Assembly (NCBI GenBank): GCA_018302545.1
Contig: JAGVZM010000002.1
Span: forward strand, 2,198-66,197
Length of the DNA: 64,000 nucleotides
Source: Candidatus Woesearchaeota archaeon
GTDB lineage: Archaea > Nanobdellota > Nanobdellia > SCGC-AAA011-G17 > GW2011-AR18
Direction of reading: 5' to 3'
The stretch's first letter is position 1; each line of letters opens with the position of its first letter. A model generated the notes under the pieces. It was given only the letters and a program-made list of their open reading frames with translations. It was not told the DNA's origin and made no database searches. This document shows positions 5,292-61,530 of the stretch, one piece after another. The position numbers and the translations under genes are program-made.

Positions 5292-6389
5292 CTAAAGTTC
5301 AACAGAATACCTTAGTATAGCTGCAACACCACCAAGTTCTTTTAATTGGGATCCTTCTTTAGTATCAAGACTAATAATAAATACATTAGTTCCCGTTTCA
5401 TTAGCTTTTTCTTCATATTCCTCAAGTTTAGAAAAACTCTCACTTAATAATAACTTATCAACTGCCCCATATTCTAAAGATTTTAAAACATCGGCAGGAC
5501 CATAAACCGCCTTATCTGAATTTTTAGATATTAGGGTAAAAAATTCATTAACAATCTTTTTTTCCTTTACAACTTCAGCTTCAGATAAAACATCCTGAGA
5601 TCTTTCAACTAATTCATTTAAACCTTCTTCATCAGTATAAGAGATATCCTTAATTGCTAAAACTTTCTTTCTTAATTCAGCATGAAGATGATTAGAATTA
5701 AAAAAAGTTTCTTTTGTTGGACCCGGACCACCTATTAATATACCCTTAAGATCCTTCCCTATTGCAGCAAATTCAATATTCGCAACATCAGAAACTCTCT
5801 TATAAAACTCATTAGCTGCCTCTTCTCTCAATCTTGCATACCTTTGTTGGGACCAGCCACCAACTTTCAATTTTCCAGGAACAGTAGAACTAAAATCTCT
5901 AATTACTTGTATGCTTTTCCCTTTTAATAAACCAAGTGTAGCTTCTCTATTATCCAAAACAAGCAATCCGTATATTTCATTTATTTGAATCATAGAATCC
6001 AAAGGATCTAAAATAAAAGTTTGATCACATCTATACATCCTAATGTTAACAGGAACAGGAGGCTCAACACTCCAGACTTGTATATCTTGTTTTCCTTCCT
6101 GCTCTGAAACATTACCAGAAAAAGCAGCCAATCCATTAGAAGGAGTAACCTTAAATAATCTCAAATGTCTTATCATCCTTTCTAAAGCATCTTGTACATT
6201 CTGTCTAGTAGTCTTGTCTTTTATATTAGAAGCAGTTCCTTGTTCCTGTGCCAAATGTTGAATTATTTTATTAAGATCATATCCTATAGGAATATAAACT
6301 GTAATAAGCTCAGTATGTCTAGCTCTATATTTTTTAAGTTCATTAACAAATTTCCTTAATTTAAATTGATTTTTTGTGTCCATATTCAA
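5292..6389 (-). CDS. prf1: Peptide chain release factor aRF1 (eRF1 family) homolog with atypical GGW in place of GGQ
   Basis: 365 aa. Domain 1 has GTASNIKD (NIKS-like) and YRCDQTF (YxCxxxF). Domain 2 has KVGGWSQQRYARLR aligned to the eRF1 GGQ loop (RGGQSALRFARLR). Read directly from the DNA. Confidence 0.75.
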   Translation of the reverse strand: MNMDTKNQFKLRKFVNELKKYRARHTELITVYIPIGYDLNKIIQHLAQEQGTASNIKDKTTRQNVQDALERMIRHLRLFKVTPSNGLAAFSGNVSEQEGKQDIQVWSVEPPVPVNIRMYRCDQTFILDPLDSMIQINEIYGLLVLDNREATLGLLKGKSIQVIRDFSSTVPGKLKVGGWSQQRYARLREEAANEFYKRVSDVANIEFAAIGKDLKGILIGGPGPTKETFFNSNHLHAELRKKVLAIKDISYTDEEGLNELVERSQDVLSEAEVVKEKKIVNEFFTLISKNSDKAVYGPADVLKSLEYGAVDKLLLSESFSKLEEYEEKANETGTNVFIISLDTKEGSQLKELGGVAAILRYSVEL

Positions 6390-8788: not shown

Positions 8789-9011
8789 ATCAACTCCAAA
8801 TAAGATGGTATATAAAATATAATGTAAATGCAATAGCCTAAAGGCTATGCCACCACTACAGAACAAACTAATAAAAACAATACAACACTGAAATTATTGT
8901 TTCTAATCATAAAAAAAAGATAATTAAAAGATATTAAAACCTTTCGATTGAAAACATTTTTAGATTTTAAATAAAAAAGACATAAAAAACTATAATGAAA
9001 AACAGCAAAAA

Positions 9012-9020
9012 CTTTAATAA
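9012..9020 (+). promoter_or_regulatory. TATA-like box (CTTTAATAA) 25 nt upstream of the tRNA-Phe 5' end
   Basis: AT-rich TATA-like octamer ending 25 nt before the mature tRNA 5' end. The other three tRNAs in this window show the same spacing. Confidence 0.4.
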
Positions 9021-9045
9021 GAGTAATTTAATCAAAAACAATATT

Positions 9046-9169
9046 GGGCCTGTAGCTTAACCTGGGAAAGTACACGACTGAAGCTCGTGTTATTGTGACT
9101 GATTAACAGGAATTGTTAGTTGGCAATAAGGTTCAAATGAGCTTGTCTCTGAAATTCCCACCGGGCCCA
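9046..9169 (+). tRNA. tRNA-Phe(GAA) with two apparent non-canonical introns in the T arm
   Basis: Acceptor GGGCCTG/CGGGCCC. D arm GCTT-AACCTGGGA-AAGT. Anticodon arm CACGA-CTGAAGC-TCGTG. A 32-nt insertion (9098..9129) inside the 5' T-stem strand and an 18-nt insertion (9139..9156) after the T loop. Removing both gives GTGGG-TTCAAAT-CCCAC and a perfect 74-nt cloverleaf. Intron boundaries can slide by 1-2 nt. Confidence 0.7.
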
Positions 9170-9329
9170 GATTTTAATTTAAATCCAAAAATAAGATAAA
9201 ATACTTATATCCTACAAAAACATGAGGGTATCTCAACTTGCATTTAATTGTGAATATACTAGAAAGAATTCGGGAATATGGTGCAAATAAAAGAATAATC
9301 AAACTTAAAAAGAAATCAAAATCTAAAAA

Positions 9330-15557: not shown

Positions 15558-16562
15558 ATGAAATTACCGTTTGAAGAAGAAAATAGAAAAATTTTAGTGA
15601 AGAAAGAAGCTTCCACAGATCCCAAATTTGGGAAAAAACCAGAAGAACGAACAGTAAGAGAACTGTTAGAGTCTTCGGTAATATGTTTAAACAAAGTAGA
15701 AGGTCCTTCTTCACACCAAGTAGCAGACTATGCAAAAAAAGCTCTAGAAGTAGAAAAAATCGGTCACGGCGGGACACTTGGAATCTTTTAAGATTAGTGA
15801 AATCCTGCAGTAACTGGGGTTCTACCTATATCTATAGGAAAAGCTACAAGAATAATGGAGGCTCTTCTAAAATCAGGAAAAGAATATATTTGTTTAATGC
15901 ACATACATACTAAAGTTCAACAATCAAAGATACACAAAGTAGCTAAACAATTCTTAGGAAAAATAACCCAAATGCCTCCTGTAAAGTCTGCAATTAAAAG
16001 ACAATTAAGACAAAGAGAAATTTATTACTTAGAAATCCTAGAAATAAAAGATCAAGATGTACTTTTCAAAGTAGGATGTCAAGCAGGAACCTACATAAGA
16101 ACACTCTGTGTTGGATTTGGAAAAGAATTAGGAACCAATGCGCACATGCAGCAATTGATAAGAACAAAGGCAGGACCATTTAATGACAAAGAATGGTATT
16201 CTCTACAAGACATAAAAGACGCATATCAATTATACAGAGAAGAAAAAGAAGAACAATTAAAGAAAATTCTAAAACCAATAGAGTTTGCCATACAACATTT
16301 ACCTAAAGTATGGGTAAATGATAATACTATAGATTCAATATGCCATGGCGCATCATTAAAAGTCCCAGGAATAATAAAAGTCCATTCAAAGATAGAAAAA
16401 GAAGAATTAGTAGCTATAATGACTTTAAAAGAAGAATTAGTTGCTTTAGGAACATCAAAGATGAATTCAGAAGAAATGATAAAAAATCAAAAAGGATTAG
16501 CAATAAAAACAACAAAAGTCTTTATGGATCGAAATACATACCCTAATTTTAAAAAAGCTTAA
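15558..16562 (+). CDS. cbf5: tRNA pseudouridine synthase B / dyskerin-like Cbf5, interrupted by a 21-nt putative mRNA (BHB) intron
   Basis: The N-terminal ORF (15558..15791) ends ...KIGHGGTL-GIF*. The same frame continues after TAA/TAG/TGA stops with NPAVTGVLPISIGKATR...AGTYIRTLC... (15801 onward). Removing 15781..15801 joins exon 15558..15780 to 15802..16562 and gives GHGGTLDPAVTGVLP with the catalytic Asp restored. Confidence 0.8.
15781..15801 (+). other. Putative 21-nt BHB-type intron within cbf5 mRNA (gaatcttttaagattagtgaa)
   Basis: Carries TAA, TAG and TGA in the cbf5 reading frame within 12 nt. Precise excision restores the TruB-family TLDP catalytic motif. Contains the AATCTT/AAGATT inverted repeat. 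Boundaries are ambiguous by 1 nt. Confidence 0.65.
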
Positions 16563-20925: not shown

Positions 20926-21924
20926 ATGCAAATAATAGCACAGTGTATTCCAAACCTAGAAGAAATCTCAATAAAAGAGATTAAAGAGTTAATAAATCAA
21001 GAATCAAAAATAATAATTCCAGGAAGAATAAAATTTAATGCAACAAAAGAAGAAATAAAAAAATTAGCTAAGAAAACAAGGAGTATACTAAAAATTTATT
21101 TATTCATAGAAAAAATAGAATTCAAAGAGTTAGATGATTTAGAAGAACAAATAAAAAAGATAAAATTCCCAGAAATAAAAGAACCATTTGCTGCAAAATG
21201 TGAAAGAAAGGGAAATCACAATTTTACATCTAACGATATAGAAATAATAATAGGTGATTCTATAAAAAATAAGAAAGTAGATTTAAAAAATCCAGAAACT
21301 ATAATAATAGCAGATATACTAAAACAAGATTGTCTAATAGGCATAGAAATTTCAAATAATTTAAGTAAGAGAGATTATAGAATAAAGATATTGTCTAATT
21401 CTATAAATCCTTGTTTAGCTTATTGTATGTTAAGAATCTCAGAAGTTAAAGAAAAAGAAACAATTTTAGATCCTTCCTGTAAATCAGGAGAAATTATAAT
21501 AGAAGCATTTTTATCATTTAAGACCTTAAAAGGTTACGCAACAGATTCTTTACTTAATCACTTAAAAGCGCTTGAGATTAATTCTAAAATAGCGCAAGTA
21601 TATAAAAAAATAGAAATAAGTAGGCAAGACATAGAATGGTTAGATACTAAATTTAATGAAGAAGAAATAGATCATATAATAACATTTCCACCATATCCTT
21701 CCAAAATTTTTAAAGAAAAAAAAGCAGAGAGATTATACAAAGACCTATTTCATGCAGGTTCTTACATCTTAAAAGAAAAAGGAAACATAACAATATTAAC
21801 AAATTCCCCAAAGTTACTAGAAAAAACAGCAAATTCAGAAAATTTCAAACTCAAAAAACAATATAAATTAAATTATATGAATCAAGAATTTTATATCTTG
21901 GTATTCAGTAAATCTTTTAAATAA
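20926..21924 (+). CDS. THUMP-domain RNA (guanine-N2) methyltransferase-like (Trm11/Trm14/RlmL family)
   Basis: N-terminal THUMP-like region. SAM motif I (LDPSCKSGEIIIEA) and motif IV (ITFPPYPS, an NPPY-like variant). Confidence 0.6.
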   Translation: MQIIAQCIPNLEEISIKEIKELINQESKIIIPGRIKFNATKEEIKKLAKKTRSILKIYLFIEKIEFKELDDLEEQIKKIKFPEIKEPFAAKCERKGNHNFTSNDIEIIIGDSIKNKKVDLKNPETIIIADILKQDCLIGIEISNNLSKRDYRIKILSNSINPCLAYCMLRISEVKEKETILDPSCKSGEIIIEAFLSFKTLKGYATDSLLNHLKALEINSKIAQVYKKIEISRQDIEWLDTKFNEEEIDHIITFPPYPSKIFKEKKAERLYKDLFHAGSYILKEKGNITILTNSPKLLEKTANSENFKLKKQYKLNYMNQEFYILVFSKSFK

Positions 21925-55093: not shown

Positions 55094-55202
55094 AGTCCCG
55101 TCGTCTAGATTAGTTTAAAAACTAAAGACAACGGCCCAGGATCGAGGACTCTGGATCAATAGGAGAAATCCTTGGACGGCAGTTCGAATCTGCCCGGGAC
55201 TA
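55094..55202 (+). tRNA. tRNA-Gln(CUG) with two apparent introns (D loop and anticodon loop)
   Basis: Acceptor AGTCCCG/CGGGACT. T arm GGCAG-TTCGAAT-CTGCC. Anticodon arm GAGGA-CTCTGGA-TCCTT, which resembles Gln-CTG anticodon arms. Removing about 23 nt from the D loop (around 55109..55131) and 13 nt (around 55156..55168) after the anticodon loop leaves a 73-nt cloverleaf. The identity and exact boundaries are provisional. Confidence 0.55.
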
Positions 55203-61321: not shown

Positions 61322-61456
61322 CGCAAGTTCAAATCACAAGAGTTTCGCAATATTTAAGTAATACAAGCCATAAGTACAATATAACTAGGAGAAAACAAAA
61401 CAAGAGGGTGAAGCGTTATTCGTCAAAACCCACTCTCGAAAGTTCAGATCATAAAG

Positions 61457-61530
61457 TGGGCCCGATGTGATTTGAACACACGACCCCTACCTTATCAGAG
61501 TAGTGCTCCACCAAGCTGAGCTACGGGCCC
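61457..61530 (-). tRNA. tRNA-Ile(GAU), intron-less
   Basis: Minus strand GGGCCCG-TA-GCTC-AGCTTGGTG-GAGC-A-CTACT-CTGATAA-GGTAG-GGGTC-GTGTG-TTCAAAT-CACAT-CGGGCCC-A. Clean cloverleaf with anticodon GAT. Confidence 0.85.

Follow-up and report, generated by a model that had tools for sequence, protein, structure and literature searches.

Could a tRNA gene that is interrupted twice within its T arm still give rise to a regular tRNA, and how would the two interruptions be removed? In archaea, the endonuclease EndA cuts introns out of tRNA precursors at bulge–helix–bulge (BHB) structures; the exons are then sealed by an RtcB-type ligase before CCA addition. The question is raised by positions 9046–9169 of a stretch of 64,000 nucleotides (64 kb; hereafter, the window) from a Candidatus Woesearchaeota archaeon, where an earlier sequence-only reading had proposed a tRNA-Phe gene with two non-canonical introns, both in the T arm. 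Our analysis bears this proposal out. Removal of the two blocks restores the cloverleaf, BHB cores lie in register at the junctions, a promoter motif and a conserved gene neighborhood accompany the gene, and the introns are kept in a relative. It is highly probable that 9046–9169 is a working tRNA-Phe(GAA) gene of this DPANN archaeon and that its two introns would be spliced by EndA.

Gene Structure and Detection

The gene spans 124 nt on the forward strand and consists of three exons and two introns, with boundaries based on the RF00005 coordinates and on ARAGORN analysis of the spliced product. ARAGORN made no call on the unspliced gene. When the two blocks were deleted, it returned a regular 74-nt tRNA-Phe(GAA) cloverleaf, as had been claimed from the sequence. 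The product has a 7-bp acceptor stem, a D stem (GCUU/AAGU), an anticodon stem (CACGA/UCGUG), a 5-nt variable loop, and a T arm, GUGGG-UUCAAAU-CCCAC, identical to the one that had been predicted; G20, G34-A35-A36, G37, and A73 are all present. No CCA is encoded at the 3′ end.

From 5′ to 3′, the gene reads GGGCCTGTAGCTTAACCTGGGAAAGTACACGACTGAAGCTCGTGTTATTGTG (exon 1), ACTGATTAACAGGAATTGTTAGTTGGCAATAA (intron 1), GGTTCAAA (micro-exon), TGAGCTTGTCTCTGAAAT (intron 2), and TCCCACCGGGCCCA (exon 3). Exon 1 (9046–9097, tRNA positions 1–51) provides the 5′ acceptor strand, the D arm, the anticodon arm with GAA, the variable loop, and G49-U50-G51 of the T stem. Exon 2, the 8-nt micro-exon between the two introns (9130–9137), supplies positions 52–59, and exon 3 (9156–9169, positions 60–73) supplies U60, the 3′ T-stem strand CCCAC, the 3′ acceptor strand CGGGCCC, and the discriminator A73. 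Across both junctions (marked by slashes), the predicted spliced tRNA reads ...UUAUUGUG/GGUUCAAA/UCCCACC...

How readily would such a gene be found? Run on the whole window, ARAGORN and Rfam (at gathering thresholds) reported a tRNA-Ile at 61456–61530 as the sole tRNA and missed the tRNA-Phe, which was absent from both whole-window Rfam runs even at E ≤ 1 because of the speed filters. When positions 8900–9320 were submitted alone (421 nt, laxer filters), RF00005 matched exactly 9046–9169 on the forward strand with 32.4 bits (E = 4.5e-5; the gathering score is 29), covering model positions 1–71 (the full model) with a 61-nt insert in the T arm. The detection of this tRNA-Phe by Rfam thus varies with the length of the submitted sequence, and default pipelines would therefore lose such genes.

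We also used a SPLITS-like search that lists BHB candidates, splices up to three of them at once, and submits every product to ARAGORN. For the tRNA-Phe region, the top solution was the combined removal of 9098–9129 and 9138–9155, and not one single BHB-guided deletion yielded a tRNA, in line with the earlier argument that single-intron models are inadequate. Over 17 intergenic gaps on both strands (34 strand-regions), solutions appeared in two, namely the tRNA-Phe and a locus at 55094–55202 described below. The hairpin of intron 1 was considered as a long variable arm and rejected: partial deletions that keep it pass ARAGORN, but they leave a T stem of only 2 bp beside the T loop.

BHB Motifs at the Two Junctions

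The junctions were scored for a 4-bp central helix with a 3-nt bulge on each strand and a cut after the second bulge nucleotide. Strict motifs (hBHBh′) have flanking helices of at least 2 bp on both sides, and relaxed motifs (HBh′ or hBH) have them on one side only; scores are given as central/inner/outer. Each exon–intron junction, where the sequence-only reading had expected a BHB-like motif, was found to carry a 4-bp core.

Intron 1 (9098–9129, forward strand, 32 nt) interrupts the 5′ strand of the T stem at 51/52, the site and length originally assigned to it, and its BHB core lies in register. The central helix pairs ATTG (9092–9095) with CAAT (9124–9127) at four of four positions, its exon strand being the variable-loop nucleotides 46–48 plus G49. 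The bulges are TG/A (9096–9098) and AA/G (9128–9130), with the slash at the cut, and the inner helix joins 9099–9107 to 9115–9123 (9 bp, extendable to 11) around a loop at 9108–9114. The local MFE structure of this region matches the central and inner helices, and BHB scoring allows only one register (4/11/1). Because the outer helix is 1 bp, the motif is of the relaxed HBh′ type; with almost no outer helix, it would require an endonuclease that accepts a relaxed HBh′ substrate.

Intron 2 (9138–9155, forward strand, 18 nt) lies in the T loop at 59/60 and forms a complete hBHBh′ motif (4/3/2). All four central pairs form between TTCA (9132–9135, tRNA positions 54–57) and TGAA (9150–9153), the bulges are AA/T (9136–9138) and AT/T (9154–9156), and the inner helix pairs GAG (9139–9141) with CTC (9147–9149) around a loop at 9142–9146. 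The outer helix is the T stem itself, which offers 2 bp while intron 1 is present and 5 bp once it has been removed (4/3/5). Since a T stands at both edges, the intron can be written as 9138–9155 (59/60) or as 9139–9156 (60/61). The earlier reading had the length of this block right but placed it at 60/61, where only one of the four central pairs forms (1/2/0); the BHB exists at 59/60 only.

Would such motifs be expected by chance? When the introns were shuffled with the exons kept, a core arose in 0.6% of shuffles per intron, and both cores arose together in 5e-5; a core was here taken as four central base pairs next to a flanking helix of 3 bp or more, and every register that left the product unchanged was counted. 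In the neighborhood, a BHB core was seen in 0.2% of the candidate splice-site pairs.

The two motifs (BHB1 and BHB2) are compatible within one secondary structure but contest G52, which is the third bulge nucleotide of BHB1 and part of the first outer pair of BHB2. Removal of intron 2 leaves BHB1 unaltered, and the BHB of intron 2 is thermodynamically weak in isolation. For the precursor of 124 nt, the global MFE fold (−40.7 kcal/mol) differs from the cloverleaf with two BHBs (−27.0 kcal/mol). This MFE fold is dominated by a perfect 8-bp pairing of 9081–9088 with 9137–9144, which competes with the anticodon stem. In this pairing, AAGCTCGT (9081–9088, anticodon loop and 3′ stem) complements ATGAGCTT (9137–9144, the end of the T-loop exon and the start of intron 2). 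Both strands are identical in the relative L033 (see below), hence no covariation signal is possible there. The same pairing was tried as an outer helix for BHB1 and dismissed, as it is non-adjacent (gaps of 3 nt and 9 nt) and would break the anticodon stem. A C/D-box guide RNA across the introns was also considered, since intron 1 has UGAUUA close to its 5′ end and intron 2 has CUGA close to its 3′ end. It was rejected by eye: the match to the C box is imperfect, and 6 nt separate the D box from the nearest terminal stem, which gives no K-turn geometry.

Promoter, Host, and Gene Neighborhood

A putative archaeal TATA box, TTTAATAA (9013–9020, forward strand), lies 25 nt upstream of the 5′ end of the tRNA-Phe gene and is preceded by an A-rich, BRE-like stretch (9007–9011). 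Just 3′ of the gene, a T run (9172–9175, forward strand) is a likely archaeal transcription stop. The motif AAAnnTTTAAkAA recurs 23–25 nt upstream of the syntenic tRNA-Phe genes of the window, L005, L007, L036, and L033, amid flanking sequence that has otherwise diverged.

In the window, the tRNA-Phe gene lies divergently upstream of the ValRS gene, whose product is 100% identical to MBS3167791.1 (labeled Candidatus Woesearchaeota archaeon). The window has a GC content of 25–33% and encodes the archaeal markers eRF1-family aRF1, Hjc, ScpB, HerA, and ribosomal protein S19e, together with a run of ribosomal-protein-sized ORFs. An identical tRNA-Phe gene occurs on three further metagenome contigs.

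Several other features of the window deserve mention. Two genes relate to tRNA modification: a THUMP plus methyltransferase protein, Trm11/Trm14-like (20926–21924, forward strand), and a Cbf5/TruB-PUA pseudouridine synthase (15855–16562, forward strand). The latter ORF matches only the C-terminal part of TruB_N, which may reflect a wrongly assigned start or a split gene. Next to ValRS, aRF1 (5292–6383, reverse strand) is 363–366 aa long and free of an intein in the window, L008, and L034. In L004, L005, L007, and L036, it contains an intein (Intein_splicing in all four, LAGLIDADG in two as well), with products of 506–786 aa. Thus, a mobile element close to the tRNA-Phe gene is polymorphic for presence or absence among these relatives.

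The tRNA-Phe Gene in Relatives

Are the two introns peculiar to this one genome? A tRNA-Phe gene divergently upstream of ValRS was also found in L005, L007 (the same as L012), L036, and L033, making five lineages with the window. The L005 gene (ValRS, 76%) has introns in the D loop and the anticodon stem (27/28) and an intact T arm, and the genes of L007/L012 (68%) and L036 (64%) have a D-loop intron only. The L033 gene (GCA_964482175.1; ValRS, 70% at the amino acid level, 77.5% at the nucleotide level, and 64% at third codon positions) shares the two T-arm introns with the window gene and has a third intron in the anticodon stem. The ValRS relatives L004, L008, and L034 have no tRNA upstream of ValRS, and a search for synteny through the downstream HD-domain gene, which proved promiscuous rather than syntenic, gave no further relatives.

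Pattern scans extended this comparison. Among metagenomes, L026 and L029, whose D and anticodon arms are near-identical to those of the window tRNA-Phe, carry a 29-nt HBh′ intron at 46/47 with inner helices that differ by compensatory changes, and L024, L025, L027, and L031, as read by eye, combine introns of the D loop, the anticodon stem, and the variable loop in different ways. The metagenome scan returned no T-arm pair; instead, it returned a sister group with the variable-loop intron. Similarly, a 5′-exon pattern scan of representative genomes, which gave no self-hit for the window gene, yielded no further T-stem intron, returning other DPANN tRNAs and the tRNA-Phe genes of L012 and L023. 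The L023 gene (Nanoarchaeia) has a T-loop intron at 59/60 with three of four central pairs according to the solver, and two more introns read by eye. The introns of the relatives' tRNA-Phe genes (D loop, 27/28, and 46/47) follow the same BHB rule, and an unrelated tRNA-Ala of L015 has a 76-nt intron at 59/60 in the same UUCA/UGAA format as intron 2 of the window. Taken together, the relatives' data suggest that this clade would routinely splice non-canonical introns, relaxed ones included, and the window gene is in all likelihood orthologous to the other tRNA-Phe genes of the clade.

Over the 124 nt of the window gene, the L033 tRNA-Phe (431–575 of that locus, reverse strand) is identical at 122 positions, in flanks that have diverged except for the promoter box. 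Of the 50 intron nucleotides, 49 are identical: intron 2 is unchanged, and intron 1 differs by one base (9118, A to G), which turns a U-A pair into U·G and keeps the pairing. At the rate of ValRS third positions, the probability of at most one change in 50 intron nucleotides is ~5e-9, and that of identity at all 18 unpaired intron nucleotides is ~3e-4. Because one independent relative carries both T-arm introns, their covariation support is minimal (the single U-A to U·G change). The retention in L033 suggests that both introns would be maintained by selection. Their conservation equals that of the exons and exceeds what BHB pairing by itself would account for; alternatively, the identity could stem from gene conversion or from transfer of the tRNA gene. 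[quoted passage not shown] If so, candidates for that role would be an enforced order of folding, splicing, or modification, or the shielding of a single tRNA-Phe gene from integrating elements.

A family of ~21-nt introns with shared sequence (..AACTnnnnAGTTGGCTTAnn) occupies position 27/28 of the tRNA-Phe genes of L005, L033, L024, L025, and L027 and is precisely absent from the window gene. Toward their 3′ ends, this family (TAGTTGGC) and intron 1 of the window are similar over a length too short for a homology call. Archaeal matches to the shared 5′ acceptor/D-arm pattern, from other DPANN genomes (L010, L011, and L018–L021), are mostly tRNAs with long or multiple introns, for example a 52-nt intron in a Pacearchaeote tRNA-Arg (TCG) and apparent multi-intron genes in Aenigmatarchaeota. 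For several genes of this type, the SPLITS-like solver gave no convincing solution.

Proposed Maturation and Alternative Explanations

How, then, would the mature tRNA be made? Transcription from the TATA/BRE promoter ~25 nt upstream would produce a 124-nt precursor in which two adjacent BHB structures take the place of the T arm. EndA would cut within the 3-nt bulges at 51/52 and 59/60, an RtcB-type ligase would join exon 1, the 8-nt micro-exon, and exon 3, and a CCA-adding enzyme would finish the 3′ end of a tRNA that is 74 nt long before CCA. What the sequences themselves show is the layout of the gene, the BHB registers, the conservation, and the synteny; the steps of transcription, cleavage, and ligation, as well as any order of splicing, we infer from what is known of archaeal tRNA splicing. 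On the folding model, an intron-1-first order would be tidy, as BHB2 would then have an outer helix of 5 bp instead of 2 bp. The known splicing mechanism is unchanged by this gene.

The same gene and the same mature tRNA could be obtained with slightly different cuts, since the 59/60 and 60/61 registers of intron 2 give identical mature sequences and ARAGORN tolerates a shifted intron 1 (9099–9128), reporting a 78-nt product. We consider such shifted sites very unlikely: the 60/61 register loses three of the four central pairs formed at 59/60, a site that recurs in the DPANN tRNAs of L015, L023, and ARMAN-2, and deletion of 9099–9128 leaves two extra T-stem nucleotides and an imperfect cloverleaf. 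Could the locus instead be a decaying tRNA-Phe pseudogene with two insertions, the work being done by an intact tRNA-Phe elsewhere in the genome? Standard finders miss the gene, the sequence in view is a 64-kb window of the genome, and the MFE fold of the precursor differs from the cloverleaf, all of which would suit decay. However, the exons show no defect, and the position of both insertions matches the BHB register exactly; the gene with its introns has stayed nearly identical to the syntenic L033 copy, whereas the flanks have diverged and ValRS has dropped to 77.5% nucleotide identity; and conservation extends to the promoter motif, the identical gene recurs on the three metagenome contigs, and an interrupted tRNA-Phe is the norm in the clade. 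A pseudogene is, on this evidence, highly improbable.

That the blocks are removed or tolerated without EndA and a BHB, by self-splicing, by trans-splicing, or by retention as an expanded T arm, strikes us as extremely improbable. No EndA was seen in the window, and nothing positive speaks for any of these routes. Blocks of 32 and 18 nt are far below the size of group I or II introns, and the gene is contiguous, colinear, and not permuted. Keeping either block would leave a T stem of 2 bp beside the T loop. Moreover, the lack of any single BHB-guided deletion that yields a tRNA, and the small likelihood of chance BHB cores at both junctions, point away from these routes and back to a tRNA-Phe gene with two EndA-spliced introns.

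Which Endonuclease Would Act on These Introns?

Pfam scans detected no EndA among 20 window ORFs, and a phmmer search with M. jannaschii EndA (a seed checked against PDB 1A79) found none either; it covered every ORF of at least 60 aa in the window and the fetched loci (296 kb). Likewise, no ligase gene was found in the window or the fetched loci. Database EndA homologues labeled Woesearchaeota or Nanoarchaeota, which are not tied to the window genome, are single-unit proteins of 170–211 aa with PF02778 and PF01974. They are 36–42% identical to, and colinear with, the M. jannaschii alpha4 enzyme, and Tyr115, His125, and Lys156 of the catalytic Y/H/K triad are invariant among them; two are longer owing to a Lys-rich tail at the N terminus.

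The sequence-only reading had taken multiple non-canonical introns as the hallmark of a heteromeric or three-unit EndA, which would call for alpha and beta subunits or for a fused protein of about 390 aa. Judging from the labeled homologues, that attribution may be wrong for the Woesearchaeota lineage, although the host could have a separate beta subunit. According to an older rule, alpha4 enzymes cut only strict canonical motifs. If this lineage has only a single-unit alpha-type EndA, these tRNA genes would be natural substrates that show such an enzyme handling relaxed, non-canonical, and tandem BHBs, which would contradict the older rule. Kaneta et al. 2018 (PMC5829648) report that several DPANN lineages have alpha4-type EndAs with an L3 insert, and they link these enzymes to a larger number of disrupted tRNA genes.

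A Second Hidden tRNA and the Consequences for Annotation

The second solution of the SPLITS-like scan, at 55094–55202 on the forward strand, is a tRNA-Gln(CTG) gene that is likewise disrupted by two introns and hidden. Its intron 1 (55109–55131, forward strand, 23 nt) lies in the D loop at ~15/16 and has a strict BHB (4/6/3), and its intron 2 (55155–55167, forward strand, 13 nt) is at the canonical position 37/38 (4/1/7). A TATTTAAAG box stands ~23 nt upstream. ARAGORN and Rfam at the gathering score miss this gene, with Rfam giving only a 13-bit ‘tmRNA’ match at 55127–55195.

As the tools miss both the tRNA-Phe and the tRNA-Gln at default settings, annotations of Woesearchaeota MAGs would wrongly report missing tRNAs, an error that carries over into scores of completeness and into arguments that DPANN archaea depend on hosts. 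The syntenic tRNA-Phe genes of close relatives use five intron sites (D loop, anticodon stem, variable loop, T stem, and T loop) in varied combinations, a series that makes a compact natural system for BHB intron gain and loss outside Thermoproteales. Furthermore, the locus supplies defined substrates for DPANN EndA specificity: a relaxed HBh′ at 51/52 and a strict BHB at 59/60, with an 8-nt exon between them.

Comparison with Known Systems

Two introns in one T arm had been called unusual in the sequence-only reading. Rare the arrangement is, but it has a precedent in ARMAN-2, whose pre-tRNA-Pro(GGG) is interrupted twice in the T loop, at 53/54 and at 59/60 (Fujishima et al. 2011, NAR 39:9695, PMC3239211, Fig. 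1C); the 59/60 intron of ARMAN-2 pre-tRNA-Cys is cleaved in vitro by the epsilon2 EndA (PMC3239211). The resemblance is close: in each case, a DPANN host has two short BHB introns in the T arm with a micro-exon between them, one intron sits at exactly 59/60, and T-loop nucleotides form part of the central helix. On the other hand, the first intron of the window gene lies in the T stem (51/52) and is of the relaxed HBh′ type, whereas the ARMAN-2 pair is described as strict; the window isoacceptor is Phe in a Woesearchaeota host, whereas that of ARMAN-2 is Pro. The enzymes would differ as well, since the labeled homologues suggest that the window host has a single-unit alpha-type EndA rather than the three-unit epsilon2 type of ARMAN-2.

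Multi-intron tRNA genes are well described in Thermoproteales, where a single gene can hold as many as three BHB introns outside the canonical position (Sugahara et al. 2008; Fujishima et al. 2010; reviewed in PMC4033280 and PMC4090602). Relaxed HBh′ and hBH motifs, rapid gain and loss between relatives, and related introns at equivalent sites are common to both. However, Thermoproteales are hyperthermophilic, GC-rich Crenarchaeota with an (alpha-beta)2 EndA that has a Crenarchaea-specific loop, whereas the window comes from a DPANN archaeon of 29% GC and its helices are weak and AT-rich. [quoted passage not shown]

The survey of Kaneta et al. 2018 (PMC5829648) covers Woesearchaeota, Pacearchaeota, and other DPANN and thus concerns the same superphylum, and probably the same phylum, as the window host. 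It notes incomplete predicted tRNA sets, which imply disrupted genes that went undetected, and the window tRNA-Phe is the kind of case that it predicts. It relied on tRNAscan-SE predictions for one Woesearchaeota MAG, and its main text, as far as it is covered here, does not describe the 51/52 and 59/60 introns. A T arm with two introns is already known from ARMAN-2; as judged from sequence, it is the T-stem site at 51/52, the Woesearchaeota host, and the Phe isoacceptor that set the window gene apart.
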